Positions 5,879 to 53,890 of a DNA stretch of 64,000 nucleotides are shown piece by piece. Position 1 is the first letter of the stretch, and the number at the start of each line of letters is the position of its first letter. A model generated the notes under the pieces. That model saw only the letters and a list, made by a program, of their open reading frames with translations. It was not told where the DNA came from and ran no database searches. The position numbers and the translations under genes were made by a program. Source of the stretch: an uncultured bacterium (GTDB lineage: Bacteria > Patescibacteriota > Patescibacteriia > CAIQCM01); the NCBI GenBank assembly GCA_963708045.1, contig OY970181.1, positions 3,740 to 67,739 on the forward strand, written 5' to 3'.

Positions 5879-6478
5879 TTATTTTCTTTTCTTCGCCGAC
5901 TTTAGCGACTTCTTAAACGCCGCTTTGGTGGCAAATTTTTTCTTCGGTTTTTTCGTAACCTTTTTGGCTTTTTCCGCTTTCGGCATTTTTACCTTGCTTC
6001 CAAACTTGGCGACTTTGGCGTCTTCGGCCTTAACCAAATCTTTAATTTTTATTCGCAAAGAATCGGTCAGGCTTTCGGCGCGGACAAGTCCCTTCGTTAC
6101 GCGCGCAAGCGAATTATCAAGCAGCAGTCCGACGTCTTTATACATGGAAACAAATGGCGTGGCCGCACCCGGAAGCATTCCCGCTTTGACCATATCTTTT
6201 TCATTGGCCAATTCAACCTTAATGGCTTTCAAATGATTTTTAACAGCTTTAAGATCAATACGGTATGAAGCCGGTACGGCGACCACATAATATCGCGTTC
6301 CTTTTTTCTCAACCTTTGGCAACTCAACTTTAATGAGCAAGGTTTTGGCGATGCTTTCCAATTTTTCGCCAAGCGTCTGTGCCAAATCATAAGCCGTGTA
6401 AACAGTTTTATGCGGCACCTCTTCAAATTTAACATTAATCTTTTTTAGATGGGCGATTATTTTTTTTGGGATGGACAT
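5879..6478 (-). CDS. YbaK/ProX-like aminoacyl-tRNA deacylase domain protein with a C-terminal Lys/Ala-rich (histone H1-like) tail
   Basis: N-terminal ~150 aa resemble the YbaK/EbsC deacylase fold. C-terminal ~50 aa are KAKK/KKPKKK low-complexity. Confidence 0.5.
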   Translation of the reverse strand: MSIPKKIIAHLKKINVKFEEVPHKTVYTAYDLAQTLGEKLESIAKTLLIKVELPKVEKKGTRYYVVAVPASYRIDLKAVKNHLKAIKVELANEKDMVKAGMLPGAATPFVSMYKDVGLLLDNSLARVTKGLVRAESLTDSLRIKIKDLVKAEDAKVAKFGSKVKMPKAEKAKKVTKKPKKKFATKAAFKKSLKSAKKRK

Positions 6479-6525
6479 AAACGTAGGGGTCAGAGATTAG
6501 GGTTTAGGGTTTAGTGAAAAAATCA

Positions 6526-7908
6526 CTAGGCAATTTTTATATGCGCTTCGCGAAGCGCTTTGGCTGGAAGTTCGGACGGGGCGCCGGTCATTGGGTCGCG
6601 GGCGTCGCCAGTTTTTGGAAAGGCAATAATCTCACGAATGTTTGGTTCGTTAAGAAGCAGGGCGATAACCCGATCCAGCCCCCAAGCAATACCGCCATGC
6701 GGCGGCGCGCCAAAAGTAAACGCTTCCAGCATGTGCCCAAATTTTTCCTTAATCGCCTCTTCGGAGTGTCCCATGATTTCAAAAACCTTTTTAAGGGCTT
6801 CGGGCTGATGATTTCTAATACTGCCGCCGCCAATCTCGCTGCCATTTAAAATAATGTCGTACTGAGCAGCTTTAATTTCGGAGATATTTTCTTTGTTCAT
6901 TAACCGCTCGCGATCGTCGGGCATGGCCGCCGAAAAAGGATTATGAGTGAATGTCCAATTTCCGTCATCGGCTTTTTCAAACATCGGGAAATCAACAACC
7001 CATTCAAAGGCAAGCAAATTAGGATCATTCTTGTCTTCGCGAAGATCCGGCTTGTCAGAATTATATTTCGCCATGGCTTCGGCATAAGGAACGCGCGGAA
7101 ACGGAATTTGTTGAATGCGTTTTTCGGGAAACAGTTCTTTAACCAGCGCAATCAGCATCGCTTCGTTAAGCGCCATCACGTCTTCGCTTTCAACAAACGA
7201 CATTTCCATATCCAACTGCGTAAACTCCGGCTGACGATCACCGCGCTGGTCTTCGTCGCGATAACAACGAGCAACTTGAAAATATTTTTCCATCCCCGCC
7301 ACCATTAAGAGTTGTTTATGCTGCTGCGGCGATTGCGGCAAGGTATAAAATGTTCCCGGGTGAAGTCTGGACGGCACCATAAATTCACGCGATCCCTCCG
7401 GTGTCCCCTTTCCCAGAGACGGCGTTTCAATTTCCCAAAAACCTTCTTTGTTCAAATAATTTCTTGAGAAATTAATTATTTTGTGGCGCATCTCCATATT
7501 TTTCCGCAACCGTTCCGAACGCAAATCAAGATAACGGTATTTAAGACGCGTTTCTTCGTTAACTTCACGTGTATCGCTCGCAATAGAAAACGGCGGCGTT
7601 TGGCATTCGTTAAGAATTTCAATATTCAAAGCTTCCATCTCCACCGTGCCGGTCGGAATATTCGGATTAACCATTTTTTCTGGACGAGCCTTTACCAAGC
7701 CGTGAATGGAAACCACCCATTCGTCGCGTAAACGCGGCACAATGTCGGTAAACTTACCAGGCAGCACAACCACCTGAATAACCCCCGTCCGGTCGCGGAC
7801 GTCCAAAAACACGATTTTGCCCATATCGCGGCGCGTGTTGATCCAGCCTTTAACGGTTATTTCTTGACCGACCTCTTTAATTGAATCAATGATATTTGTT
7901 CTTTTCAT
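6526..7908 (-). CDS. aspS: Aspartate--tRNA ligase (short form without GAD insertion)
   Basis: Class II aaRS motifs: anticodon-binding OB fold N-terminus, QSPQ, and motif 2 ARCYRDEDQRGDRQPEFTQLDME characteristic of AspRS. 460 aa. Confidence 0.8.
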   Translation of the reverse strand: MKRTNIIDSIKEVGQEITVKGWINTRRDMGKIVFLDVRDRTGVIQVVVLPGKFTDIVPRLRDEWVVSIHGLVKARPEKMVNPNIPTGTVEMEALNIEILNECQTPPFSIASDTREVNEETRLKYRYLDLRSERLRKNMEMRHKIINFSRNYLNKEGFWEIETPSLGKGTPEGSREFMVPSRLHPGTFYTLPQSPQQHKQLLMVAGMEKYFQVARCYRDEDQRGDRQPEFTQLDMEMSFVESEDVMALNEAMLIALVKELFPEKRIQQIPFPRVPYAEAMAKYNSDKPDLREDKNDPNLLAFEWVVDFPMFEKADDGNWTFTHNPFSAAMPDDRERLMNKENISEIKAAQYDIILNGSEIGGGSIRNHQPEALKKVFEIMGHSEEAIKEKFGHMLEAFTFGAPPHGGIAWGLDRVIALLLNEPNIREIIAFPKTGDARDPMTGAPSELPAKALREAHIKIA

Positions 7909-12004: not shown

Positions 12005-12817
12005 TTACTTCTGTGGCTGCGATGCAAGCACCGCCTCTACAATCAGATCGTGGATCTTGCCATTCGACATGATGTGTCCCTCTATTTCACTACTGCCGCC
12101 GTAGCTGATCGGCCGACCGAAAATATCGGTCACTTTTCCGCCCGCCTCTTCAACAATCGGATGACCCGGAGCTGTATCGTGATACTTTTTTCCAGGGAAG
12201 ATAGTAGCAGCGAGTTCGCCGGTTGCGACGGCCGCCTCAAGGTAGCCAATGCTACAGAAATTGACGGTCATCACGCCTGCCGCCTCCAGACGTTTGCACA
12301 CGTCCAGAATATTGAAGGAGCATCCTGGCCAGGAAGCATAGCCGACCACTGGCATCTCCTTACCCCTGCGTTTGGCGATTTGCGAAACGTGTATCGGAAC
12401 ACCGTTCGCAAATGCCCCCTTGCCCCGTTCGGCCGAATACATCTGATGCTGGAATGGGTCGTAGATCACGCCCATCACTGGCACACAAATGTATATGAGT
12501 CCGATCATAAACGTTGAAACCGGCATTCCCCAGGTGTAAGGAAAGGTGCCGTCAATCGGATCGCAAGTGATCTGCCACGGACTGTTTGTCCGTGCGTTTT
12601 CTTCCTCGCCGATAATGTCCACGTACGTAGAGATCTTGCGAACAGCCTCAATCACAAGGCGATTGACGCTCGTATCGGCCTCTGTAAATGGCGTGGCGTC
12701 ATCCTTCACCTGACGCGCAATACCACCGCCGGGGACGAAGAGGTTGCTAATGATCGTACCGGCGTTAGTAGCAATGTTCTGTAACTCGTGGAGCTGGATA
12801 GGAGTAGGGGTTCGCAT
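12005..12817 (-). CDS. Inositol monophosphatase / SuhB / CysQ family phosphatase
   Basis: Metal-binding motifs DPIDGT and HDTAPGHPIVEEAGG (WD-x-AAG-like). Confidence 0.75.
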   Translation of the reverse strand: MRTPTPIQLHELQNIATNAGTIISNLFVPGGGIARQVKDDATPFTEADTSVNRLVIEAVRKISTYVDIIGEEENARTNSPWQITCDPIDGTFPYTWGMPVSTFMIGLIYICVPVMGVIYDPFQHQMYSAERGKGAFANGVPIHVSQIAKRRGKEMPVVGYASWPGCSFNILDVCKRLEAAGVMTVNFCSIGYLEAAVATGELAATIFPGKKYHDTAPGHPIVEEAGGKVTDIFGRPISYGGSSEIEGHIMSNGKIHDLIVEAVLASQPQK

Positions 12818-32001: not shown

Positions 32002-34515
32002 TTATTTAACAATTATCACGCCAGACCCTTTTTCAAGTTTTTTAAAAAGCAAATACTTCTCTCCAACTTTGATCCTGACAAATTTATTGTTAATAATCTC
32101 GCTTTTAGGAATATTAATTACACCGCCATATTTTTCCTTCAGGGCGTTGCCTTGTGCGAGCATCTCCCGCTCTTCCTTTCTCACAGCACTATCAAGCGCG
32201 TTAAAATCTATTTCAAACTTTCGGCCACGAAGACCAAAGTGGTCAATGATATTGCGCTGACCTTTGAGTTTGGCTTCAGTCTTCTTAAATTTTAGACCGG
32301 CATAATCTTTAACATCGATCTTATCAAGGACACTCTCCGGTGAATTGTTAAAATCGGCGACTTTTTCCAGTGTTATTACGCGCGATCGATATTCGTCGCC
32401 CTCAGCAACCTCGCCGGAATATTCATCAACGATCTTGAAACCCAACCCCTCGGCGAATTCATGAAATTTTGAAACATCACGTAGATCGAGACTATAGATA
32501 AAACTTATCACCGCTCGACCTCCCGGCTTTAAAACGCGATTGGCTTCTTTAAGCACTTCAAGACGTTCAAGCTTGCCTCTGCTTGGAACAAAGCTTGAGT
32601 AATGCAACGCCAAGGCCAGATTAAGATAATCAAACGACTTGTCCGCGAAAGGCAGCTCGCGCCAGCTGGCAACCGCGCTCTGTACTACCTGCTCCTCTTT
32701 CGCCCTTAAATGATACTTATTCGCGTCAACGCTAATTACCCGTTTCTGCAAAGCATCGCCGATATGCTGACGCAACATTTCGGGGCCGGAAGCTACGTCA
32801 AGAATACGCGTTTCTTCGGGCTTACCGCCGCGCTCTTTTAACATTGAGCCGACTAGCGTACCAGCGACACGATTAGCGTTGGCCTGATAACTGCGATTTC
32901 CAAGATCAAGATAGCAGTCGGCATAGTCCTTGCCGTACTCTGACAAAAATTCTCTGAAGCCCTCTTCTCCAATCTCTTTCACGTGCGCAAAGATCCGCAT
33001 CAGTTTATCCCACGACGAGAAATAATACTCTGCTAACTCCCTGCCAACCTCTAAATCGGGATTAGCACTTTGTTCGTCTTCTCTTAAGAGTTGCTTTTCC
33101 AGTTCTTGAATAGGAATGCCGTGAAGTAATTTTTCAATTGCCTGGTATTTCCGTCCGATATACTCGTGGATCCCCTCTTCAAGGGTATTTTTAGTAACAA
33201 AGGTGCGAACGGCGAGGTCGTGCTTCAAGCCCGGTCGGTATACTCGCGACACTTGTTGACGACGATCATATTCCGTCCATGGCTCGTTGTATGTAAAGAC
33301 AGTTTCGGCGGAAGTAAAATCAACACCAACATCGGCTGTCTGGCCGCTCACGACCAAAAGCATCTTACCGGTCGTTTCCCTGAATTTTTTTTGAATTTCT
33401 TCACGTTCGCCGCGATTGCCGCCATGAACAACCATAACCTCGACATCTTGAGGCAGACCGAATTTTGTGATGATATTATCTTTCCCACGAATAACGCCTT
33501 CAATATAACCGTTCACGAATAAAACAGCTTTGTTGTTTTTTGCAAAGCATTCGCGTAAATCATTACCAACTCTTTCAATTTTCGCACTGCGAATTCCCGG
33601 CGTGGCGTCTAATAAGTCCGGGTTCATTAGGAACTGCCGCAACATGGACATTTTCTGTGCCGCCTCTAATTCATCGTCTTCAAGGAGAACTTCATATATA
33701 TCCGTTTCCATTGGTGACAACTCGGTTTCAACTTTCTCCTCACTTAACGCAGGCATCTCCACCCCCTCTTCCAATTTCTTCGCCTGCATACGCGGCAATA
33801 ACAATGACCGCAGATCAACAAGGTCGCCTTGGATTATTTGCCGAACCAGGTCACGATCGTCCCAAGTCGCGAATTTTTCTGGATAAAGTAATTTCAAAGA
33901 GATAGCGATATCTTCGACTTTATTTGGCGCTGGCGTACCGGAGAGCAAGGCTAAATACTTACCTTCGCCTTCAACTTTTTTAGACAGTTCAATCAACTCG
34001 TTTGTCCTTTGTCCTTCCAAATTTTTCAATTTATGAACCTCATCAACAACCAGCATGTCGTATTCCAATGATGCTAGCGCTTGGCTATACCGTTCATTCA
34101 TGCGCTCTTGAGACATAAGCACATAATCGTATTGATCAGCAGTTACTCCGACTAAATCCTCAACCGAAGATACCTCCAAAACTCTCGGTGCTTCGCCGCT
34201 CTTAAAATACCCGCCGTCTTCGCCGCGATCGGACAAATACCGCCTCCAGGTAGAAACAACGTTGCTTGGCGCAACAACCAAAGCACAACCGATGCCAAGC
34301 TGTTCTTTAGCCATGATAACGGAAGCACTTTTTCCAAGACCCATTTCATCGGCGATCAAAAGCCGCCTTTTTTCCGCCAACTCCTTCATATTGATGCGCT
34401 GATTGATATCGGGAAATTCCCTGTTCGGATCAAGCGAATTGAACGAACCGCTCGGGTTTACGGAAATCTTTAAGGACGGAATCGTAATAGCGAATAACGT
34501 CTTGAATAACATCAT
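32002..34515 (-). CDS. SNF2-family helicase fused to a C-terminal class I SAM-dependent methyltransferase domain
   Basis: Helicase motifs I (ADEMGLGKSA), II (DEVHKLKN) and III-VI regions, then a Methyltransf_11-like domain (ILDVASGPEML, VLKPGGRAVISF). 837 aa. ATGA overlap with the upstream repeat-protein gene. Confidence 0.75.
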   Translation of the reverse strand: MMLFKTLFAITIPSLKISVNPSGSFNSLDPNREFPDINQRINMKELAEKRRLLIADEMGLGKSASVIMAKEQLGIGCALVVAPSNVVSTWRRYLSDRGEDGGYFKSGEAPRVLEVSSVEDLVGVTADQYDYVLMSQERMNERYSQALASLEYDMLVVDEVHKLKNLEGQRTNELIELSKKVEGEGKYLALLSGTPAPNKVEDIAISLKLLYPEKFATWDDRDLVRQIIQGDLVDLRSLLLPRMQAKKLEEGVEMPALSEEKVETELSPMETDIYEVLLEDDELEAAQKMSMLRQFLMNPDLLDATPGIRSAKIERVGNDLRECFAKNNKAVLFVNGYIEGVIRGKDNIITKFGLPQDVEVMVVHGGNRGEREEIQKKFRETTGKMLLVVSGQTADVGVDFTSAETVFTYNEPWTEYDRRQQVSRVYRPGLKHDLAVRTFVTKNTLEEGIHEYIGRKYQAIEKLLHGIPIQELEKQLLREDEQSANPDLEVGRELAEYYFSSWDKLMRIFAHVKEIGEEGFREFLSEYGKDYADCYLDLGNRSYQANANRVAGTLVGSMLKERGGKPEETRILDVASGPEMLRQHIGDALQKRVISVDANKYHLRAKEEQVVQSAVASWRELPFADKSFDYLNLALALHYSSFVPSRGKLERLEVLKEANRVLKPGGRAVISFIYSLDLRDVSKFHEFAEGLGFKIVDEYSGEVAEGDEYRSRVITLEKVADFNNSPESVLDKIDVKDYAGLKFKKTEAKLKGQRNIIDHFGLRGRKFEIDFNALDSAVRKEEREMLAQGNALKEKYGGVINIPKSEIINNKFVRIKVGEKYLLFKKLEKGSGVIIVK

Positions 34516-36392
34516 CCAGGTCTTTGTTGTTTAGGTGATGAAATTTTTCGAACGATCTCATCCAGATAATCATAAATTATATCTTGACTCGTCCTATTTG
34601 GATCTTTGCGCCGTTGTTCAAAATAATAGCTCAAACAATGCTCCTTGAGCGCTTCAAACAATCCTTCGCGCAAAGACAGGTCGGAAAGATATTCAACAGC
34701 AACTCCGATATTATCTAAGGTAAATTTTTGCGACTTGACCAAAAAATCGCCGAGGTAATCTGCCAAAATTCCTTTGACATATTCCGGCGGTAAGCCTTTG
34801 TATTCGGGACGGAATTTATAGAGAATATCTAAGGCGTGTGAGCCGCCCAGTACACCGACGAGAACTTGAAATTTTTTTGAATCCACCGATTCACCAACCG
34901 AAAGATCAGAAACAAAAGATTCAATAGAAATACTCGCATTTTTCTTTTCACTTTTTTTATAACATTCATCTTTAATCAACTCTATCAATTCTGGACTCAA
35001 AAACTCTGTGACAAAGCCGTTCCTGCGAAATTTCTTATACCATTCCTGATGTGCGGACCGATACCTGTCAGCAATTTTTTTGATTGCATCCCTCTTGGCA
35101 AAACCGATTCTACTCAACTCGAAAATATTCATCCAATCGTCTGGTGCTACCTCAAACCGTCCGAGATCCGAACGAATCGCCTCAATCAAATCGGGATGAA
35201 AATATTCAACCTTTCCACCAGCGGCTGGCCAATACTTCCTGAACCATTCCGGATGGGCCGCGCGATATTTTTCAGCTGCTTTCCATATGGATCCACGCGA
35301 CCCAATACCGGTTTTGCTTAAAGCAAATACATGCATCCACCCCTCCGGCGGCCTCTCCTTCCCCTCCAATTCATCACTGATAATTTTAACTAAATCTGGG
35401 TGAAAATATTCCAATTCAGGACTGCCAGGTGCCCAATATTTCTTGAGCCATTCCGGATTAGACACACGATACCTTTCTGCTATTGGCGTAATCACATTCT
35501 GCCCGCCGACACCAGTCTTTACGACGTCAAAAACCGTTTTCCACCCTGTGGGCGGTTTTTTCCTGCTTCGTAGTATCGCAATAATTATAGCGACTAATTC
35601 AGGGTGAAAATGTTCAATTTTTAATCCTGTTACGGTCTTGTATTCCTTGAACCATTCCGGATGACTTGTCCTATATGGCCCAACGATCCTATTTATTATT
35701 TTGTCGCCCCCTGTTTCTAAAACACTAATTTGACTCCTATTCATCCAGCCATCGGGTGCAAATTCGAATTTATTTAACTCTTGCCTAATGATTTCGACCA
35801 GATTCGGGTGCAAATATTCGCCGCTCGGGCCCTTTATAGGCCAAAACTCCTTGAACCATTCCGGATGCTCTGCACGATGCTGTTCGGCGTGTTTATTAAT
35901 CGTATCCCTGGATCCAATGCCAGTTTTACTTAAAGCAAATGCATTCATCCATCCCTCCGGTGCCCTTTCCCGTCCCTCTAACTCAGAACGAATTATCGCT
36001 ATCAGATCGGGGTGTAGATATTCGGTAGCAGAACCGGTTTCGGGATAAAAAAATTTAAACCATTCAGGGTGATCGTCCCGATATCTCGCCGCGATACTGT
36101 CAATCGTATCCCTGGATCCAATGCCAGTTTTACTTAAAGCAAATGCATTCATCCATCCCTCCGGTGCCCTTTCCCGTCCCTCTAACTCAGAACGAATTAT
36201 CGCTATCAGATCGGGGTGTAGATATTCCAAAAACCTACCTTCCTCGGTCCGAAAAAGCTTTAACCATTCTGGATGCTCTTTTTTGTATTTTTCAGCTATG
36301 TGCCTAATAACATAATCCTCTACTTTCAAGAGGCTCACCAGATCAATAAGTTTAACCCAGTCTTTGGGAACCTTGTTTGTTTCGAAAATCAT
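34512..36392 (-). CDS. Tandem-repeat protein (about seven 63-aa repeats with HPEWF...EYLHPDLIAIIRSELEGRERAPEGWMN consensus)
   Basis: Protein-level periodicity and a 189-bp DNA periodicity including two identical copies. Probably the downstream part of a longer gene interrupted by a frameshift near 36352-36392. Confidence 0.6.
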   Translation of the reverse strand: MIFETNKVPKDWVKLIDLVSLLKVEDYVIRHIAEKYKKEHPEWLKLFRTEEGRFLEYLHPDLIAIIRSELEGRERAPEGWMNAFALSKTGIGSRDTIDSIAARYRDDHPEWFKFFYPETGSATEYLHPDLIAIIRSELEGRERAPEGWMNAFALSKTGIGSRDTINKHAEQHRAEHPEWFKEFWPIKGPSGEYLHPNLVEIIRQELNKFEFAPDGWMNRSQISVLETGGDKIINRIVGPYRTSHPEWFKEYKTVTGLKIEHFHPELVAIIIAILRSRKKPPTGWKTVFDVVKTGVGGQNVITPIAERYRVSNPEWLKKYWAPGSPELEYFHPDLVKIISDELEGKERPPEGWMHVFALSKTGIGSRGSIWKAAEKYRAAHPEWFRKYWPAAGGKVEYFHPDLIEAIRSDLGRFEVAPDDWMNIFELSRIGFAKRDAIKKIADRYRSAHQEWYKKFRRNGFVTEFLSPELIELIKDECYKKSEKKNASISIESFVSDLSVGESVDSKKFQVLVGVLGGSHALDILYKFRPEYKGLPPEYVKGILADYLGDFLVKSQKFTLDNIGVAVEYLSDLSLREGLFEALKEHCLSYYFEQRRKDPNRTSQDIIYDYLDEIVRKISSPKQQRPG

Positions 36393-36480
36393 TTTTAATC
36401 AATAAAACCAGTTCAGGACTATACTCAATTCTAATCCCCCGCCCTGTTTCAATTTTACGGAACCATTCCGGATGTCCAGC
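34990..36480. repeat. 189-bp-period coding tandem repeat array; two adjacent copies share an identical ~120-bp block
   Basis: The block TCCCTGGATCCAATGCCAGTTTTACTTAAAGCAAATGCATTCATCC...GGGGTGTAGATATTC occurs at ~35909 and ~36098, offset by 189 bp. Older copies are diverged. Confidence 0.8.
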
Positions 36481-36711
36481 TCCGAGTTTATTGGCCAATT
36501 TTCCGATCGTGTAGAAATCAGAATTAAAAAACAGAGAGAGATGATAGGTCGTTTCCCATTTTTCGTTTTCACCAACTTCAACATTATTTTCTGTATTTGA
36601 AAAACCTGATTTGCCGATCTTAAAAACCGATTCATCACTCTTTTGTGGCTGCCCCGTATCGGATCCGTCGTTTTCCACGTCCGGCCGCCATTTTCCCTCA
36701 CCTTCAGACAT
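36352..36711 (-). CDS. N-terminal fragment of the same tandem-repeat protein (contains one HPEWF repeat), out of frame with 34512..36392
   Basis: Ends ...LIKNDFRNKQG while the next ORF begins ...NKVPKDWVKL. Together these restore one repeat unit across a +/-1 shift. Confidence 0.5.
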   Translation of the reverse strand: MSEGEGKWRPDVENDGSDTGQPQKSDESVFKIGKSGFSNTENNVEVGENEKWETTYHLSLFFNSDFYTIGKLANKLGAGHPEWFRKIETGRGIRIEYSPELVLLIKNDFRNKQGSQRLG

Positions 36712-36869: not shown

Positions 36870-37500
36870 GAAAACCGCCAGCTAAACGCTGGCGGTTTCG
36901 TGCTTACCGGCTTAACGCCGGATTTTACTGAAGAGGCTTGGTTGCTCAAGTGTTATTTGGTGATGACTTTGATTCTGAACATATTTTTTAACCGCCTCCT
37001 CATTCACCCCAACGGTGGATACGAAGTAGCCTCTGGCCCAAAGAACACCTTTGGGAAACTTTTTGGTTTTCTTTTTTATCCAACCTGATGTTTTCGCTTT
37101 CAGAATTTGGATGACATACGCGATGGAGTATTTGGGCGGGATGCCGATGTGGAGATGGATGTGCTCATCACCAATGTGCCAAGCATAGATCTTCAAGCCT
37201 TTCCATTGGGCTATTTGGTTGAACATTCGCTTCAGCTCTTGTTTAATGAAGTTGTCCGCCAATACCTTGCCACGGTACTTTGGAGCCCAGACTATATGAT
37301 AGCTGCAGTGATATGTGCAGTGATCTAATTGGCATAGTTGATGGTTTCTGGACATAAAATCACCTCCTTTCTCGGGAGGTTATTTTATCTTATGGACAAG
37401 AGCTACGCTTTTAAACGCACTCGCCAGCTAAACGCTGGCGGTTTATCGTTTATAATGAAAAACCCCACGACTCTCTCCGCAGAGAGTCGTGGGGTTGTTG
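36870..37500 (-). mobile_element. IS200/IS605-family insertion sequence (tnpA only)
   Basis: Y1 HUH transposase ORF flanked by the same hairpin CGCCAGCTAAACGCTGGCGGTTT at ~36876-36898 and ~37422-37444. A strong hairpin (CCCCACGACTCTCTCCGCAGAGAGTCGTGGGG) at 37458-37497 forms the distal end. Confidence 0.7.
36912..37355 (-). CDS. tnpA: IS200/IS605 family transposase TnpA (Y1 HUH)
   Basis: YHIVWAPKYR, HUH motif HIHLHIGIP, and catalytic Tyr region RGYFVSTVG. Confidence 0.8.
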   Translation of the reverse strand: MSRNHQLCQLDHCTYHCSYHIVWAPKYRGKVLADNFIKQELKRMFNQIAQWKGLKIYAWHIGDEHIHLHIGIPPKYSIAYVIQILKAKTSGWIKKKTKKFPKGVLWARGYFVSTVGVNEEAVKKYVQNQSHHQITLEQPSLFSKIRR

Positions 37501-37509
37501 CGATCTTGG

Positions 37510-38598
37510 CTAGGCTATTTTTGATTTTTTCTTAAGCCCAATACACGCACGCTCGGCGTCGGCGAGACGATAGTAAAACTGCGATCTTCCTCCTTTTTCT
37601 TTTGCTCTAAACGGAACAAGGTTATGTTTATTAGCCCTGAACCGTAGCGTTATATAGCAAACACCCATTTTCCGTGAAAGAGCTTTCAACGTACCTACAA
37701 CTTCATCCTGAAAAGTGAAACAGCCGTCTTTGTCAGCTAAGTCAGTAAGCGCTATTTCCAGAACAGGAGTTGCGGCGTTTTGATTTCTCTTTCTTGACCC
37801 CACCAGATCCAAAGATGTATCAACCTCTTCCTTATCACTGTCGTCATCCCGCTCTTCGTCATCATCCACCGTTGTTTCAGTGGCCGAAAGACTTGATTTC
37901 ACTTCGGGAACAACAGCAATCATTTCCCAAGGCTCCCTCCCAACAATCAACCCCTGTTGTCTAAGCTCGTTCAAAATTACCCTACCATCCGAATGAGCAA
38001 GTCTCGCACGCGCGGAAAGAACTGTGAGTGGTGCACTAATACTTCTAAGTCTGTTCGGTAAAACAACAACATGCTCACAGAGTAGTGCAAACGACTGTTC
38101 AACGGACAACGGCTTGGGTTTGATTTCATCTTCCGGTGAAGCCGAGTGTCTCCACTTGCCTTGGTCAGGATCGATTTTCAACTGTCTGCTCCCCGCCTTT
38201 CGCATTCGCGAAGATAGCCTTTCAAGCGCAGTACCAACACTCTCAGCCGTTCTGTTTGTCTTTCTAACCGATCGTTCGTCCGGTGAACACTTGCCACACA
38301 GACACCCTTTGGTGTCTGTTATATGACCAACAACGGAGCATTTTTTACAGCGACGGGTCGCGGCGCAACAACCTGAGCATGCCCGCGGCCTCTGTTCTTT
38401 TTCGCAATCGTTAACTCCGATTAAAGCTCCCGCCAATAAACAATAGACCGTGACCAGTTCTTGATTTCCTTCCACAGGAGCCTCCTTTCTTTGGTTTGAA
38501 GTTGAACCCGGGCGCAATCGTTCTGCGCCCAGGCAAATAGGATCAACGTGCGTAAACAGACGCAACAACTTTCCCAAGACGATCAATCCTATCAACAA
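37510..38598 (-). CDS. Cys-rich hypothetical protein immediately downstream of a sigma factor (candidate anti-sigma/zinc-binding regulator)
   Basis: Long ORF with a CSGCCAATRRCKKC...GCLCGKC cluster and an acidic stretch. The true start is probably internal, because the first 56 nt overlap the sigma gene. Confidence 0.3.
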   Translation of the reverse strand: MLIGLIVLGKLLRLFTHVDPICLGAERLRPGSTSNQRKEAPVEGNQELVTVYCLLAGALIGVNDCEKEQRPRACSGCCAATRRCKKCSVVGHITDTKGCLCGKCSPDERSVRKTNRTAESVGTALERLSSRMRKAGSRQLKIDPDQGKWRHSASPEDEIKPKPLSVEQSFALLCEHVVVLPNRLRSISAPLTVLSARARLAHSDGRVILNELRQQGLIVGREPWEMIAVVPEVKSSLSATETTVDDDEERDDDSDKEEVDTSLDLVGSRKRNQNAATPVLEIALTDLADKDGCFTFQDEVVGTLKALSRKMGVCYITLRFRANKHNLVPFRAKEKGGRSQFYYRLADAERACIGLKKKSKIA

Positions 38599-39628
38599 TT
38601 CCGTCTATGTCGTCATATGTCAATCCCAACTCTTTGGACGCCACATGGATTGCTTGGAGTTCAATTTGGCGAACCCGTTCGCGAGTTATTTTAAAACGAT
38701 GCCCGATTTCTTCCAACGTTAATTGCTCGCATTCACCCAGACCGAAACGCAAATACATAATCGCTTGGGTTCGCCGACCCAACCGCCCAAACACCGCCTC
38801 AATGCGATCTAGCGCCAAAAGATTTTCCCGAAGCAAGCGACTGGCTTCAACAATTGTTTCCGGATCAGCTGACGGATCGCCCAAAACATCGCCGTAAGTA
38901 TCGCCACCCTCACCCTCATCGCCCTGCAGCCGCCGATTGAGCGACCAGTACTGTTGGATTATGTAACGCATACAGCTTGCTACCTGGCGCAGGGTTATCT
39001 GCTCATTCATCTTTCCGCCAGAGCCTCTGATTCTCGTGCATATCTGCATTGGATCAGGAAGCACTCCGCACGCTTTGTAATAATCCTCCATCGCTTTTCC
39101 AATCGTAAAAAGCGTATCTTGCAGATGGACAGGAAAACGCATCGGACGAAGTTGGCTCGTGTTTCTTATGGCTCTCGTAATCCCTTGTCTGACCCACCAA
39201 ACTGCGTAGGTGGCAAACTTGAATCCGCGTTCACACTCGTACTTTTCTGTCGCCCTCATTAGTCCAATGAATCCAGCCTGAAGCAAATCAGAAAACGAAA
39301 CGCCGCAATTTGGATACTTTTTAGCGATGTATACAACCAGCTTCATTGACCGAAGCAAGATAGTGTCGCGGATTCTTCTCTTCTCCACTTCGGACGAAGC
39401 CGCGTGCATTCGCGTAAACAATTGAACTTGTTCTTCGCGATCATCCAAAGTTGGGAGACCGCGCGCCGATGACAAAAATGCCGTCACCTCGCTTCTATCT
39501 GGGCCGCAAATTTGCGCTACCGCACTTTCAACATCACTAAAATCTATTTCTTCATTACCAACCTCAAGCTCGCTAGGCACCAAGTCGTCTAAAACAAGAT
39601 CGGTAAGTTCAGCAAGATTGTTTCCCAT
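38543..39628 (-). CDS. RNA polymerase sigma factor, sigma-70 family (RpoD-like regions 2, 3, 4)
   Basis: Region 2.x FSDLLQAGFIGLMRATEKY and YAVWWVRQGITRAI, and region 4.2 TLEEIGHRFKITRERVRQIELQAIH. Acidic N-terminal region. 361 aa. Confidence 0.75.
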   Translation of the reverse strand: MGNNLAELTDLVLDDLVPSELEVGNEEIDFSDVESAVAQICGPDRSEVTAFLSSARGLPTLDDREEQVQLFTRMHAASSEVEKRRIRDTILLRSMKLVVYIAKKYPNCGVSFSDLLQAGFIGLMRATEKYECERGFKFATYAVWWVRQGITRAIRNTSQLRPMRFPVHLQDTLFTIGKAMEDYYKACGVLPDPMQICTRIRGSGGKMNEQITLRQVASCMRYIIQQYWSLNRRLQGDEGEGGDTYGDVLGDPSADPETIVEASRLLRENLLALDRIEAVFGRLGRRTQAIMYLRFGLGECEQLTLEEIGHRFKITRERVRQIELQAIHVASKELGLTYDDIDGIVDRIDRLGKVVASVYAR

Positions 39629-39751
39629 TGTTTCCCCCTCCGCCCAAATGGACGGTTAAGACGTTTAAATTACTGCAAATTGTAAACGAACTATCGCAAA
39701 AATATACTTGTGAAAAGTATTTTTGTCAATAAGCGCTCTCACGCGGTTTGT

Positions 39752-40387
39752 TTATGAAAAAAACTTTAGGGTAAAACTAATGGCCGAAGAAAAAAGTGTC
39801 CCGAAGATATTTATACCCATAAGCCCATCTAAAACTATAATTAAAAGCAAAATAAGCGGGCCGCGCGTTTCTAGGTTGTAGCGGAATTTTTGATAACGCG
39901 GATTCGCAAGGGCGGAAAGAAGAAACTTTGACCCATCAAGCGGCGGGATTGGAATCAAATTAAAAAGACAAAGAATAAGGTTAATGACGACCAGTAACAT
40001 TAGAAATTCAGTCAGCATATTTCCAAGGGGGAAATTTGGCGCGACTAATTTAAGAACCGTTCCAAAAACAACCACCGATAAAATATTTGAAACCGGTCCG
40101 GCCGCGGCAACAATCGTGCTCCCCCACCTTGGGAAACGAAGGTTGTACGGATTGTACGGCACCGGCTTTCCCCAACCAAAACCAACAAGAACTAGCGCCA
40201 TAAAACCAAAAGGATCTAAATGTGCAAGCGGGTTTAATGTGAGCCGACCCATTCGCTTGGCCGTTTGGTCGCCAAGCAAATGCGAAGCCAAGGCATGCGA
40301 AAATTCGTGTACCGTAAGCGCAATTAAAATCGCCGCCACCCAGGCGACAAAATAGATTGGATTGGTGAAGAGAAGGTTTATTGGCAT
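39752..40387 (-). CDS. Site-2 protease family (peptidase M50) zinc metalloprotease
   Basis: HEFSHA (HExxH) in a TM helix and the downstream NLIPIPPLDG motif. Polytopic membrane protein. Confidence 0.75.
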   Translation of the reverse strand: MPINLLFTNPIYFVAWVAAILIALTVHEFSHALASHLLGDQTAKRMGRLTLNPLAHLDPFGFMALVLVGFGWGKPVPYNPYNLRFPRWGSTIVAAAGPVSNILSVVVFGTVLKLVAPNFPLGNMLTEFLMLLVVINLILCLFNLIPIPPLDGSKFLLSALANPRYQKFRYNLETRGPLILLLIIVLDGLMGINIFGTLFSSAISFTLKFFS

Positions 40388-48202: not shown

Positions 48203-49285
48203 TTAAATTTTTTTAATAATCTTGATGACCCCTTGTTCCGCATCAACTTCTATTTCATCTCCATCTTTAAGAACTTTGGTGGCAATTTTGGTACCAATGA
48301 TACAGGGTTTGCCAAGTTCGCGCGCAACAATCGCCGCATGACAAGTAACCCCACCTTCGTCAGTAACGATTGCTGAGGCCGTTTTCATTGCGGGCACGAA
48401 ATCGGGTGAGGTCATCGCCGTAACAAGAATCGCATCTTTCGGAAACAACTTAATATCATCATGTGTAAATACCAGACGCACCGATCCAGTCACAGCCGGC
48501 GCTTTAAAAGCGATTGACCCCTTAAACGATTGTACTTCCTCCGTTTCCAGAAATGAATATCGGTATCCTCGTTTTCCCAACAATTCCGAAAAAGACTTAC
48601 CAATAACTAGTTCATCTCCAAACAAAACATAGCCGCTAGTCCTAGTATCAAGAATATCCTGTTTTGGCGCGACGCCGCGAACAAACATTTCCCTAAGTTC
48701 AGAAACAGTAAGGAGGTGTGCAAAACGGCGCGCGATACCAAGAGTCTCCAGTCTGGAACAGGCCATATCTCGCACAAAGGCGTCAACCTGCTCAAACAAA
48801 CCTTCCAAAAATACACGATTATCATATTGCGCCTTAAGGTATTTCTCGGCCGCTTCGCCTTTTGCTTCCTTAAACGCTTCGGCAAACGGTCCGGGAAGAA
48901 AAACCGAAAACATATAGCCGGGGTACATTGTTGCCCAAAGTTCAAGGCAGCGTTCGTACACCATAGTATATTCCGAAGACTCTACTGAGTGTTGCTTAAT
49001 AAGCTCGCGCAATTGAACTGCTGCTTTGCGGGTCTTTTCCCGAAACTCGTCAGAAAATAATTGATGATCAAAGGGGAGTTGGGCAATGTGTGCGCGCAAT
49101 GCCTCAACTTCATCGCGAACGCGATACGCTTCAAGTGCGCGTCCGTTAAAATTGCAGATTTGAATTGAAAAACTTTTGCCCCACACCTGCTTTACTTCCT
49201 GATCAAGTAACGATTTCCACCAAAACTGGGCGGTAAAAAGAGAAAAGTCCCTGGTAAATATCAAATCTAATAATTTCTTTTCCAT
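48203..49285 (-). CDS. PEP-utilizing enzyme mobile (phosphohistidine swivel) domain protein with an N-terminal helical domain of unknown function
   Basis: C-terminal GGVTCHAAIVARELGKPCIIG motif of PEP synthase/PPDK swivel domains. There is no ATP-grasp or PEP-binding domain. Confidence 0.65.
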   Translation of the reverse strand: MEKKLLDLIFTRDFSLFTAQFWWKSLLDQEVKQVWGKSFSIQICNFNGRALEAYRVRDEVEALRAHIAQLPFDHQLFSDEFREKTRKAAVQLRELIKQHSVESSEYTMVYERCLELWATMYPGYMFSVFLPGPFAEAFKEAKGEAAEKYLKAQYDNRVFLEGLFEQVDAFVRDMACSRLETLGIARRFAHLLTVSELREMFVRGVAPKQDILDTRTSGYVLFGDELVIGKSFSELLGKRGYRYSFLETEEVQSFKGSIAFKAPAVTGSVRLVFTHDDIKLFPKDAILVTAMTSPDFVPAMKTASAIVTDEGGVTCHAAIVARELGKPCIIGTKIATKVLKDGDEIEVDAEQGVIKIIKKI

Positions 49286-50662: not shown

Positions 50663-52345
50663 TCATCGCGGTGCTTTTTCCAAAATCCTAACCGTCCCGT
50701 GCAAAGCGCGGACTTCTACGAGGTCGCCGTCGTGAAGAAGTTCGGTCGCATTTTTGGTGCCGATAATACAGGGTTTACCTAGCTCGCGGGAAACAATCGC
50801 CGCGTGCGAGGTTATCCCGCCCTCGTTCGTCACAATGCCGGCGGCTTTTTTCATAAGCGGCACAAATTCCGGCCGCGTCATTCCCGTTACCAAAATTTGC
50901 CCTTCTTTAAATTTAGAAAATTCATTAACCGTTCGCACAACGCAAACGATTCCTTTAGCAAACCCCTGCGACGCGACTTTGCCCGCGATTACCGAATCAT
51001 GTTCCTTGCCGCCAATCTTATTCTCTAACTCTTTGCGAAGAGACAACGCCTCGTCGCCATAAAGCACCCGATAGTCAACCCCTTCGGCAATGTAGATGGC
51101 ACCATTGTTACGACGATCCTCTAGTGTCGCCTTGGTAAGCACACCTTTTAAAACACTGGCAACCTCATTATGATTTAGATACGATAAGCAATTTACAGGA
51201 ATACCTGTGCGCCGTTCTATTTCTTGCAAGACTCGCAAAAAAGCGACAATGCCCATTAAATTATATTTCTTTCGCGATTCGCGCCAAGCGGTTAATTTTT
51301 GAAAAAACGCCAACGGATTAACCTTAAGCCCGCGCTGTCGCAATATTTTTGTGATTATTGCTTCGCGCGTTTCGCTAAACGTTTCCAGTTCGTGAATTTC
51401 CATTTTTATAGCTTCGGGGTTGGATAAATATTTATCAAGCTCAGCCACGATTTCTTCGTTAGAGATTGAACGATAAACCGCGTAGTTTGATTGATAATAA
51501 TCAAAATGTCTGACGTAATTTTTTATATCAGTACTTTTTTCCACAAAATCTTTAATCATTTTAAGACGAGCACTACCACTCCAGCGTTTATGTAAAAGCG
51601 TTCGCGCGATTTTTAACAAAGCCAGTTTCCGCTCGCGATCAATAGAAAGCTCGTTGGTTGTCGTGAGTGCGACTGTGTCCTCAACTGAAAGATTATTTTT
51701 TTGCGCAATTCTTTTTATTTCCTCTTGATCAAAACCGGCGTCAAAAGAATCTATAAATAAACTTGCGTCCCAGAACGGATCATACGCAACTAAAATGCTG
51801 GCGGAAAATTCCGCAAGCTCGTGATCGTTTAAAGACGCGAGAATCTCACCACTGTTTTCCAAATAAATATTTTCAATTTTTGATGCCGCCCGCTCGTATT
51901 CAGCATAAAGCAAATCAAAATCCGCCATTTTTGAATATTGGCGATAAACTTGATTGGACCATTTGTTCATTTCGTCAAAATCCCAATATGCCCAAAAGTA
52001 ACCTTTCTGCGCGTAATAGATAAAATGTTTTTCAAATTTATTTCCTAGACCACAATTAATACGGACAAAAGGTGAAAAAAGCGTAAACGGCACACCTTCC
52101 CCTTCTTGACGATAGGGTTTAATTTCGTTTGATTTTTTACTCGGCTCAATTTTCATTTCAATCAACTGCGCAAGCGGAATATCGTAGGTCGTGCAAATTT
52201 TTTCTATCGTTTCAAACTTAATCCCATCCACTTTATTGTGAAAGAGAGCGGTCACCGTATTGCGATTCAAACCCGTGTCTTCAGCAATTTCCAAAATTGT
52301 CTTCCCTAATTTTTCGCTTAATTCCTTAATTTTTATTGTAATCAT
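50663..52345 (-). CDS. XRE-type HTH DNA-binding domain fused to a C-terminal PEP-utilizing swivel (phosphohistidine) domain
   Basis: N-terminal HTH (ELSEKLGKTILEIAEDTGLNRNTVTALFHN) and C-terminal GGITSHAAIVSRELGKPCIIG. Start set at MITIKIK, because the ORF track's extension to 52981 runs through the promoter and overlaps the opposite-strand gene. Confidence 0.65.
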   Translation of the reverse strand: MITIKIKELSEKLGKTILEIAEDTGLNRNTVTALFHNKVDGIKFETIEKICTTYDIPLAQLIEMKIEPSKKSNEIKPYRQEGEGVPFTLFSPFVRINCGLGNKFEKHFIYYAQKGYFWAYWDFDEMNKWSNQVYRQYSKMADFDLLYAEYERAASKIENIYLENSGEILASLNDHELAEFSASILVAYDPFWDASLFIDSFDAGFDQEEIKRIAQKNNLSVEDTVALTTTNELSIDRERKLALLKIARTLLHKRWSGSARLKMIKDFVEKSTDIKNYVRHFDYYQSNYAVYRSISNEEIVAELDKYLSNPEAIKMEIHELETFSETREAIITKILRQRGLKVNPLAFFQKLTAWRESRKKYNLMGIVAFLRVLQEIERRTGIPVNCLSYLNHNEVASVLKGVLTKATLEDRRNNGAIYIAEGVDYRVLYGDEALSLRKELENKIGGKEHDSVIAGKVASQGFAKGIVCVVRTVNEFSKFKEGQILVTGMTRPEFVPLMKKAAGIVTNEGGITSHAAIVSRELGKPCIIGTKNATELLHDGDLVEVRALHGTVRILEKAPR

Positions 52346-52360
52346 AAAATTATATGAATA

Positions 52361-52461
52361 GTGTACTAGGCACACTATATAATATCTATTCACCTTTGTC
52401 AAGATTGTGCCTAGTACACTAACCAACCACCCTTGACAAATCATTAAAAACGTGTTAGCAT
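52361..52461. promoter_or_regulatory. Divergent promoter region with a pair of 14-bp inverted repeats (candidate operator for the HTH-swivel protein)
   Basis: GTGTACTAGGCACA (52361-52374) and its reverse complement TGTGCCTAGTACAC (52406-52419). Minus-strand promoter TTGACA-17-TATAGT (52374-52402). Plus-strand promoter TTGACA-17-TAGCAT (52433-52461). Confidence 0.5.
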
Positions 52462-52519
52462 AACCTATTCCTGATGAACTTCTGAACTGGATCCAAAACC
52501 TGATACGGAGGAATGAACG

Positions 52520-53101
52520 ATGAACGACCTTTCTATTCTGTTTCTGCGCCACGGCGCGACCACCCCGCTCGACAAGACCGTTCCTGTGAGCCAAGGCGAC
52601 CCAGCTCGCGTCCTTACGAGCGAAGGCATTGCCCGCGCCGAAGAGGTCGCCACTGACCTCGCATCGCAGAGCTTCGGGCTCATGATCACGTCCGGGGTAT
52701 CTCGGACGGTTCAAACCGGCGCCATCGTCGCGGCCAAGCAGCAGAAGCTGGTTGACATCATGAGCATACGTAGCCTGTACATGCCACTCGACCAAAACGA
52801 GGTCAACAGGTTGTTCGCGCTTTTCGATAAAGCGACAACCCCACGGCTTGCCCAGGAAGTCATGGAGATCCGAAGTATGTGCGAGGCACAGGCAGAAATC
52901 ATTCTCGCCGAGTGTAAACTCCGCAGCAACCCATATACGCTGGCCGTGAACCATATGGTTCTGATTCAACTCATCGCCCACGCAATGGGCGCCTCGGAAA
53001 ACGTCCTCGACGCGAAACTGGAGCCTTGCGACGGACTCTGGGTCAATATCACAGCCGAGGGGACAACCTGGCTCCGCTACTCAGCCCCCAAGGCGGCCTA
53101 G
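52520..53101 (+). CDS. Histidine phosphatase family protein (phosphoglycerate mutase-like)
   Basis: RHG motif (LFLRHGAT) at the N-terminus. Strong GGAGG RBS and noticeably higher GC than the surroundings. Confidence 0.65.
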   Translation: MNDLSILFLRHGATTPLDKTVPVSQGDPARVLTSEGIARAEEVATDLASQSFGLMITSGVSRTVQTGAIVAAKQQKLVDIMSIRSLYMPLDQNEVNRLFALFDKATTPRLAQEVMEIRSMCEAQAEIILAECKLRSNPYTLAVNHMVLIQLIAHAMGASENVLDAKLEPCDGLWVNITAEGTTWLRYSAPKAA

Positions 53102-53212: not shown

Positions 53213-53890
53213 CTACTCATTTTTGTCGAGGCGAAACCTCGGCCAATCAGAATCTATGCGCTTTTTCCCAATCAACCCTAACACAAAATCGCGGTATTTC
53301 TTTTTATTTTTAAATTGATTTAATACTATTTCTGAATTATCTACAATACTCTCTCCTTGTCTAATACCGATGTAATCAAAGTAACTAGACCATTTAAATT
53401 TATTGAGTAAACGATTTAATAGTTGCATATCGTGGCAATTGGGCGTAATTGCTTCCACTGGATTTAAGTGAATATAGCGCGTTAAATGAAGTAAGTATGA
53501 ATTATCTTTGATATGTTTGCTTTTAAAAACTCCTTGGAACAATACTCCCGATCTTTCATAACGCTTATTAAAATACATAGTGTACCCAGTTAATAATTTT
53601 TGAATATATTTTGATATCCCGTTTTCTTGTACCTGCTCCAGTATCAAATGAAAATGATTTGGCATTAAACAATATGCGACAATTTTAACCAAAGCCTCTG
53701 GCCGATTTGGTCGAGGCGAAACCTCGGCCAAAAGACGATTAAAATGATTAATTGGTTCAAGCGAGTTAAATAATTTCATACCAAGAATGAACCGCTCATA
53801 ATCTTTGTTTTGTAAAAAGACACGCCTTTTATCTGTCCCCCTATTATAAATGTGATAAAATTCACCATTAGTAAAAACCAGGTTACGCAT
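53213..53890 (-). CDS. REP-associated tyrosine transposase (RAYT, IS200-like Y1 transposase)
   Basis: YHIYNRG, HUH motif NHFHLIL, and conserved Tyr region. Flanked by REP hairpins. Confidence 0.7.
   Translation of the reverse strand: MRNLVFTNGEFYHIYNRGTDKRRVFLQNKDYERFILGMKLFNSLEPINHFNRLLAEVSPRPNRPEALVKIVAYCLMPNHFHLILEQVQENGISKYIQKLLTGYTMYFNKRYERSGVLFQGVFKSKHIKDNSYLLHLTRYIHLNPVEAITPNCHDMQLLNRLLNKFKWSSYFDYIGIRQGESIVDNSEIVLNQFKNKKKYRDFVLGLIGKKRIDSDWPRFRLDKNE

Follow-up and report, generated by a model that had tools for sequence, protein, structure and literature searches.

The 64,000-nt stretch of DNA analyzed here (the window, to whose positions all unprefixed coordinates refer) belongs to contig OY970181.1 from an uncultured member of the Patescibacteriota. 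It carries two co-oriented genes on the minus strand, one encoding a sigma-70-family, RpoD-like protein of 361 amino acids (aa) (38543..39628) and one, directly downstream, encoding a cysteine-rich protein of 321 aa (37510..38475), here called the partner. We propose that the partner is a dedicated sigma-associated DNA-binding accessory factor typical of bacteria of the Candidate Phyla Radiation (CPR), in effect a detachable module of the sigma factor, and we put the probability of this reading at about 0.6. Both proteins appear to belong to the CPR/Patescibacteria.

Judging from gene order and protein sequence, the coupling between sigma factor and partner is very likely functional and probably physical, because their adjacency survives changes in the flanking genes and because they have been fused repeatedly. 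Since the pair persists across the group and is fused in sister lineages, the partner looks like a detachable sigma module rather than a classic anti-sigma factor. The protein is built of four parts: a module with eight conserved cysteines (Cys8, or Cys module), a winged helix, an acidic linker and a C-terminal domain resembling a helix-turn-helix (HTH).

Conserved pairing and sigma fusions

A word-indexed homology search with the partner alone matched only the partner itself, and a protein-pattern scan of reference genomes, built on the close partner family, gave no match. The one close relative of the sigma factor (59% identity) led to a contig that carries a 45%-identical partner homolog directly downstream, and a profile of the window partner and this first homolog retrieved two more. 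The three closest homologs (40-45% identity), on the related contigs L001, L002 and L003, each directly follow a sigma ortholog. The gene order of this closest clade is M50 peptidase, sigma, partner, rpsL, rpsG and fusA; the pair lies just upstream of rpsL-rpsG-fusA in two of the three related contigs. In L001 it stands between the M50 gene and the str operon, with one extra gene for a region-4-only protein between M50 peptidase and sigma, and in L002 it is directly upstream of rpsL. Distant homologs (~25-30% identity) keep the order of sigma then partner although the flanking genes differ, RNase III replacing the M50 peptidase upstream and RadD/XPB-like helicases replacing rpsL downstream. 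At such loci the sigma and partner genes overlap by 4-11 nt in two lineages, and a small opposite-strand gene intervenes in another.

The same arrangement was found with a degenerate DNA pattern that was made by hand from the Cys motif only and for which ~0.03 chance matches are expected. It matched 12 loci among GTDB representative genomes and another 5 in metagenomes, 2 of these on contigs already identified, and none in viral contigs. At every locus, 12 of 12 in the reference genomes and 5 of 5 in the metagenomes, a sigma open reading frame (ORF) stands just upstream on the same strand, often overlapping.

A HMMER scan of 1.84 billion representatives with a profile of four homologs returned 267 proteins at E <= 1e-3, and the top 150 representative clusters, comprising 146 newly found representatives, were sorted with domain HMMs. 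Twelve of the 150 clusters are direct fusions of an RpoD-like sigma factor with the winged helix and contain no Cys module; one natural example is MBI2551875.1. These fusions include proteins named Candidatus Uhrbacteria and Candidatus Magasanikbacteria, and they occupy a gene context equivalent to that of the split pairs. The Cys module is present in about 35 of the 146 new representatives, mostly followed by the middle domain (the winged helix), and 4 of the 146 combine it with sigma region-4-like HTHs. About 90 are made up of the C-terminal 68-aa module, detected 2-8 times in tandem or, in a few, as a single copy; a profile search counted up to 11 stretches of this module per protein, with arrays of 3-11 in many CPR proteins. 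Other members of the partner family end in HU or carry a DnaA-C HTH. We found no description of the partner family or of the sigma-partner pairing in the literature or in profile libraries.

Further genes accompany the pair at some loci. RadD/XPB-like SF2 helicase genes follow the partner in L004 (9240-11528) and L006 (10099-12417), and likewise in L013, L015 and L018; the RadD/XPB-like helicases of these other CPR loci have C-terminal arrays of the partner's 68-aa domain, and in the representative P0177 such an array is fused to a ResIII/SNF2 helicase. Helicases that follow the partner and bear these arrays suggest a wider sigma-partner-helicase module. Extra small proteins, consisting of a sigma region-4-like HTH and/or a DnaA C-terminal HTH, are encoded beside sigma in L001 (3179-3928), L008 (9402-10322) and L004 (5461-5868), and none in the window. 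Four contigs with the CPR-type pair (L012, L014, L015 and L019), from co-assembly metagenome-assembled genomes, are labeled 'uncultured Gammaproteobacteria bacterium'. One of them, CAYHDY010000002.1, has an otherwise CPR-like gene content, and the labels on all four are probably placeholders or errors.

The sigma factor, its partner and their transcription unit

As the original prediction, made from the letters of the window, had described, the first gene encodes a 361-aa sigma-70 protein with conserved recognition motifs and the second a co-oriented CxxC-rich protein with an acidic stretch. Pfam identifies region 2 (Sigma70_r2, 5.4e-18) and region 4 (Sigma70_r4, 3.8e-11), both exceeding their gathering cut-offs, which assigns the protein to the sigma-70 family. 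Regions 2.4 and 4.2 of sigma-70 proteins hold the residues that read the -10 and -35 elements, and both motifs are preserved here (YAVWWVRQGITRAI in region 2.4 and TRERVRQIE in region 4.2). The Pfam scan found neither region 1.2 (r1_2) nor region 3 (r3), although the alignments to SigA structures do cover the region-3 segment. The best matches among solved structures are all principal SigA/RpoD factors (E ~1e-40, residues 47-328), namely cyanobacterial, clostridial, E. coli and Thermus proteins, with RpoS and SigB ranking lower. RpoD-type models also rank highest in NCBIfam, yet all stay under their curated cut-offs (NF004208, 178 against 555 bits; TIGR02393, 171 against 354 bits), so the protein is RpoD-like and is not assigned to the RpoD equivalogs. 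No other sigma-like ORF was found within the 64-kb window. From its sequence, this is probably the organism's principal sigma factor. The anti-phage sigma MzaA of the MZA system, the top NCBIfam/PADLOC match, was rejected, as it reflects the generic sigma core only (194.8 bits against a cut-off of 800; PADLOC match limited to residues 88-181), and NCBIfam and PADLOC gave no Mza match for the partner or the neighboring genes. A reading of the locus as a defense system was likewise set aside, PADLOC having returned only generic sigma and SNF2 matches.

The sigma factor begins with an acidic N-terminus, continues through regions 2 to 4 and ends in a 33-aa C-terminal extension past region 4.2 (38546..38644, minus strand; residues ~329-361). 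This extension is common to all partner-coupled CPR sigmas, split or fused, in which the tails measure 33-38 aa and follow the pattern LG[IV]T..[EQ]I..I[IV]...EL..I; its conservation is also seen in the alignment against L001. In the fused proteins the tail (~35 aa) leads into a short acidic linker and then into the winged helix.

The partner contains 14 cysteines, three CxxC pairs (at residues 33, 43 and 60) and an acidic stretch with 14 D/E in 30 residues. It matched no family in Pfam, NCBIfam or PADLOC at their cut-offs. When Pfam was relaxed to E <= 10, the sole match was MerR_1 on the C-terminal domain (E = 0.15, under the cut-off), and no anti-sigma model appeared. A regular-expression search found no HxxxCxxC, the motif of zinc-binding anti-sigma (ZAS) factors, and no membrane segment was found (maximum Kyte-Doolittle 19-residue mean, 1.45); the moderately hydrophobic stretch near the N-terminus aligns with a hydrophilic, Cys-containing segment of the homologs.

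The N-terminal Cys module (38278..38454, minus strand; residues ~8-66) has eight cysteines that are invariant or nearly so in an alignment of 23 sequences (C12, C24, C33, C36, C43, C46, C60 and C63). Three CxxC pairs are among them. E27, Q28, G35, R41 and R42 are conserved as well, and the module shows an EQ...GC...RRC signature. A weak profile match (E 0.19) relates the module to the zinc knuckle of ribosomal protein uS14 type Z.

Two AlphaFold2 (AF2) models of the partner were made, the first from 4 sequences (mean predicted local distance difference test score, pLDDT, of 38.7) and the second from the 23-sequence alignment. In the second model, residues 121-190 (37906..38115, minus strand) reach a pLDDT of 92-97 and adopt the H-b-b-H-H-b-b topology of a winged helix-turn-helix domain; the top Foldseek matches are the winged HTH domains of CRP/FNR, IclR and MarR proteins (probability 0.9-1.0; E 0.01-0.07). 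The acidic low-complexity linker (37801..37890, minus strand) comes next, and several homologs and fusions have comparable acidic tracts after the winged helix. The basic C-terminal domain, which we call Crep (37531..37734, minus strand; ~68 aa, 17 K/R against 7 D/E), has a bb-HH-bb-H topology at a pLDDT of 70-80 in the first, shallower model, of which it is the only usable part. A PDB profile match to the 'CAP repeat' 8VD6 (E 0.003) was discarded, as 8VD6 is a de novo designed repeat protein and the score sums five very weak HTH-like matches. The folded domains of the partner, together with the domains that replace or join them in paralogs, point to DNA binding.

The two genes form a promoter-to-terminator unit, as judged from its sequence signals. 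A promoter-like site (39701..39729, minus strand; TTGACA-17 nt-TATATT), identified by consensus match only (11 of 12 positions), lies ~70 nt 5' of the sigma start codon, and an intrinsic terminator (37461..37496, minus strand; 16-bp stem followed by T5, -31.4 kcal/mol, z = -6.9) lies 3' of the partner gene and is kept in L001 and L002 with compensatory changes. The overlap of the two ORFs in the original prediction did not hold, as it is an artifact of taking the longest ORF. The 362-aa, TTG-start version of the partner (37510..38598) is merely the longest ORF possible, and the real start is almost certainly the GTG at 38475, which leaves a 67-nt spacer between the genes. A Shine-Dalgarno sequence (AAAGGAGG) stands 5 nt before this GTG, the GTG aligns with the ATG of three homologs behind the invariant leader AACTTCAAACCAAAGAAAGGAGG, and an independent gene call on the identical protein likewise arrives at 321 aa. 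The spacer contains a stem-loop (38506..38534, minus strand; 12-bp stem without a T-run, -28.9 kcal/mol, z = -2.6). The partner's 5' leader (38476-38500; AACTTCAAACC-AAAGAAAGGAGG) is invariant across the window and L001-L003, where the proteins are only 45% identical.

A proposed sigma accessory factor and the alternatives

Under our proposal, the partner would act as a detachable C-terminal module of the sigma factor. The Cys/zinc module, possibly with the helix after it, would dock the partner onto sigma or RNA polymerase; a docking device is the most economical interpretation because this module is found only where the winged helix is not covalently joined to sigma. The winged helix and the HTH would touch additional DNA close to the promoter or influence promoter binding in some other way. 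We expect the effect to be positive and not sigma-sequestering, akin to that of RbpA, GrgA or an appended DNA-binding domain. The docking on sigma and the added DNA contacts make a testable prediction. More tentatively, and with the odds against it, the CPR housekeeping sigma may work obligatorily with an extra winged-helix module, either fused or supplied in trans via zinc-module docking, the two forming a composite initiation factor. If this were true, promoter recognition in CPR bacteria would involve an extra element or contact absent from textbook sigma-70 promoters, and the Cys module might render that contact redox- or metal-sensitive. CPR bacteria have tiny genomes and very few regulators, and to our knowledge almost nothing has been established experimentally about their transcription. 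For a basal transcription component specific to their lineage, the partner is a strong candidate, and its analysis defines three families of uncharacterized domains (the Cys8 module, the sigma-linked winged helix and the 68-aa repeat).

Several observations weigh against this proposal. At the position equivalent to the spacer, L001-L003 carry a terminator-like hairpin with a T-run and then a promoter-like site (TTGACT-17-TAAATT), both absent from the window; strict co-transcription of sigma and partner is therefore not universal, and partner expression may be tuned separately from that of sigma. The Cys module was modeled at moderate confidence (AF2 pLDDT 54-81), and it is the conserved spacing of its cysteines that suggests two four-Cys zinc sites. 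The Foldseek matches of the C-terminal domain, to pSK1 Par, BldC, Xis, RacA and MerR-family proteins, are weak (E 0.3-1.5; TMt 0.5-0.6). Finally, fusion in cis is also compatible with autoinhibition by the added domain, and the fusions thus prove that sigma and partner are functionally coupled, not whether the effect is positive or negative.

The original prediction had likened the two genes to the classic pair of a sigma factor and a zinc-binding anti-sigma factor. Adjacency and fusions uphold the idea of a functional pair, but a mechanism of the ZAS/RsrA/RskA kind finds no counterpart in the partner, which has DNA-binding folds in place of the motif and membrane segment of those proteins and which no anti-sigma HMM matched, even at the relaxed Pfam threshold. 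Some anti-sigma factors bind zinc without having the ZAS fold (CsfB), and the partner could be a non-ZAS anti-sigma factor whose Cys/zinc module inhibits sigma, as in CsfB/Gin, or serves as a redox switch, as in RsrA, with the DNA-binding domains secondary. We consider this improbable. The strict adjacency to sigma and the Cys-rich, probably metal-binding N-domain would suit an anti-sigma factor, as would the site-2-protease-family M50 gene that the window and L001 have just upstream of sigma; this neighbor, however, is not conserved beyond the closest clade. Against the same idea, Pfam, NCBIfam and PADLOC matched no anti-sigma model, HxxxCxxC and a membrane segment are missing, DNA-binding-type folds make up most of the protein, and 12 clusters carry the winged helix and sigma on one polypeptide. 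The target, moreover, looks like a housekeeping-type sigma, for which constitutive pairing with an inhibitor would be unusual. A sigma gene followed by a Cys-rich ORF is not automatically a sigma/anti-sigma pair.

To a second possibility, that the partner binds DNA independently, as a transcription factor or a nucleoid-associated protein, and shares a conserved operon with sigma without any physical link, we assign a similarly small share of the probability. The winged-helix and HTH folds, the paralogs with HU or DnaA-C domains and the promoter-like site that the partner has to itself in relatives would all agree with such a role, as would the tandem arrays of the C-terminal module that many unrelated proteins, helicases among them, carry. 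The fusion of winged helix and sigma in 12 clusters nevertheless argues for one complex, the Cys module occurs only beside sigma genes at every locus examined, and the C-terminal extension of sigma is conserved alongside either the partner or the fusion.

That the block might be a horizontally acquired island, delivered with an IS200 element and encoding a second, specially regulated sigma factor, is very unlikely. This possibility came from the original prediction, which had placed the genes in a GC-richer block bordered by IS200. An IS200 element is indeed next door, but it does not bound the sigma block; it lies outside the operon, past the terminator, where L002 has no insert and L001 has a different one. 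The 1-kb segment 38001-39000 does have a GC content of 0.50 against a mean of 0.456 for the whole window, but several other 1-kb segments also reach 0.50. Gene-level composition is typical when compared with 53 genes of the window, both for GC (0.483, z = +0.54, for sigma; 0.473, z = +0.25, for the partner) and for GC3 and codon-usage distance (z -0.8 to +0.3). The GC contrast near the sigma block is that between coding and intergenic DNA. The same pair occupies its conserved chromosomal position at the M50 and str genes of L001 and at rpsL of L002, the best matches of the sigma factor are principal sigmas, and the search of viral contigs returned no match to the Cys motif. Horizontal acquisition is essentially excluded.

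The insertion site past the terminator and the rest of the window

The IS200/IS605-family element (36871..37444, minus strand) is inserted just past the sigma-partner terminator, and its flanks do not enclose the sigma block. Its transposase gene tnpA (36912..37355; Pfam Y1_Tnp, 1.6e-33; NCBIfam transpos_IS200, 5e-36, 123.6 bits against a cut-off of 55) lies between two identical 23-nt palindromic hairpin repeats (36876-36898 and 37422-37444, 546 nt apart). A Y1 (HUH) transposase with subterminal hairpins identifies the element as a member of the IS200/IS605 family. The codon usage of tnpA is atypical (z = 2.6).

Alignment of the interval from partner to rpsL reveals three states. L002 represents the empty site, in which TTTTTGGCT and the rpsL promoter come directly after the terminator. 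In L001 the IS200 site (window 37400-37450) is taken by a non-coding insert of ~430 nt (~6440-6870 of that contig), which begins with the same left-end sequence TATAAACGATAAACCGCCAGC. In the window, ~5.4 kb separate the terminator from the rpsL promoter, filled by the IS200 element together with genes for an SNF2-methyltransferase and a frameshifted repeat protein. The IS200 element therefore marks an insertion hot spot and not the boundary of a sigma island; since the L001 insert shares the left end of IS200, the spot looks like a repeated target of IS200-type elements or of their miniature derivatives.

The repeat-protein gene comprises a 626-aa ORF (in the region 34512-36711, minus strand), most of which is made up of seven tandem repeats of 68 aa (204 nt) that share a conserved HPEWF motif, and an overlapping upstream ORF of 119 aa (36352-36711) with an eighth HPEWF-repeat copy. 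The spacing of this eighth copy is 199 instead of 204 nt, and the two ORFs therefore look like one frameshifted gene. The 626-aa protein matched no Pfam family. Equating its seven 68-aa repeats with the partner's C-terminal module was not supported by HMM searches or by hhalign (probability 1.2%). The adjacent gene (32002-34515, minus strand), which overlaps the repeat-protein gene by 4 nt, encodes an 837-aa fusion of an SNF2-family helicase to a class I SAM methyltransferase (Methyltransf_11), with only generic SNF2 matches to defense helicases (ZorD, DrmD, DpdE) and to RapA. It is probably part of a local insertion, because it is absent from the same position in L001 and L002; in the closest relatives rpsL comes directly after the partner, without an intervening SNF2-methyltransferase. 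We did not count it toward the pattern of helicases downstream of the pair in CPR bacteria, as those are RadD/XPB-like SF2 helicases, a different family.

On the other side of the pair, directly 5' of sigma, the window carries a gene for a 211-aa M50/site-2-protease-family peptidase (39752-40387, minus strand), as does L001. Outside the closest clade this neighbor is not conserved, and RNase III holds its position in other CPR lineages. The partner is not an obvious M50 substrate, because it has no membrane segment.

The rest of the window contains the str and ribosomal-protein operons, type IV pilus genes, ComEC and others, nearly all on one strand, a gene content that fits a small-genome bacterium of the CPR type. 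The ORF 53213-53890 (minus strand) has a partial Y1_Tnp match (1.4e-08) and the lowest GC of the window (0.335, z = -3.6), and may be a degraded or foreign IS200-like element. The highest GC3 (0.605, z = 3.3) belongs to the ORF 12005-12817 (minus strand). Two further minus-strand ORFs (48203-49285 and 50663-52981) end in a PEP-utilizing-enzyme mobile domain without the usual enzyme body; the larger protein (772 aa) also has a Cro/C1-type HTH, and the architecture of both is unusual.

Comparison with known sigma factors and their partners

The window sigma shares with the principal sigmas RpoD/SigA regions 2 and 4, an alignment over residues 47-328 and the motifs of regions 2.4 and 4.2. It differs from them in being short (361 aa), in the lack of a detected Pfam region 1.2 or 3, in scoring under the RpoD cut-offs and in its extra C-terminal extension of ~33 aa, which in relatives leads into a fused winged helix.

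Like the ZAS factors (RsrA, RslA, ChrR; Pfam zf-HC2) and RskA, the partner is Cys-rich, probably metal-binding, and encoded directly downstream of a sigma gene. Unlike them, it has no HxxxCxxC, no HMM match, no predicted helical anti-sigma domain and no membrane anchor, and has DNA-binding folds instead; the lack of a transmembrane segment also sets it apart from the membrane-anchored RskA/RseA type.

The delta subunit of Firmicutes (RpoE) resembles the partner in having a winged-helix-type domain followed by a strongly acidic tract, and the helicase genes near the pair in other CPR loci recall the partnership of delta and HelD. Delta, however, binds core polymerase, is not encoded beside a sigma gene and has neither a Cys module nor a C-terminal HTH, and no HARE-HTH (delta-type) match was found in the partner. 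For the 68-aa domain, the predicted topology is similar to that of MerR/Xis/BldC proteins (top matches pSK1 Par, BldC, Pukovnik Xis and RacA), and its tandem arrays recall the head-to-tail multimers that BldC and Xis form on DNA; the matches are weak, and the partner domain has two features of its own, a beta hairpin added at the N-terminus and a Cys conserved at the C-terminus.

A parallel to the logic that we propose is offered by RbpA of Actinobacteria and GrgA of Chlamydia, accessory factors that bind the principal sigma and contact DNA. RbpA of Streptomyces also binds zinc. In each case a lineage-specific protein would be dedicated to the housekeeping sigma and add DNA contacts. The partner shows no detectable relationship to RbpA or GrgA in sequence or fold (no Pfam or PDB matches) and has another domain architecture, and its link to sigma comes from gene order and fusions. 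We place the partner, with functions inferred beyond gene order and fold, as a variant among sigma-associated accessory factors or among sigmas with appended domains.

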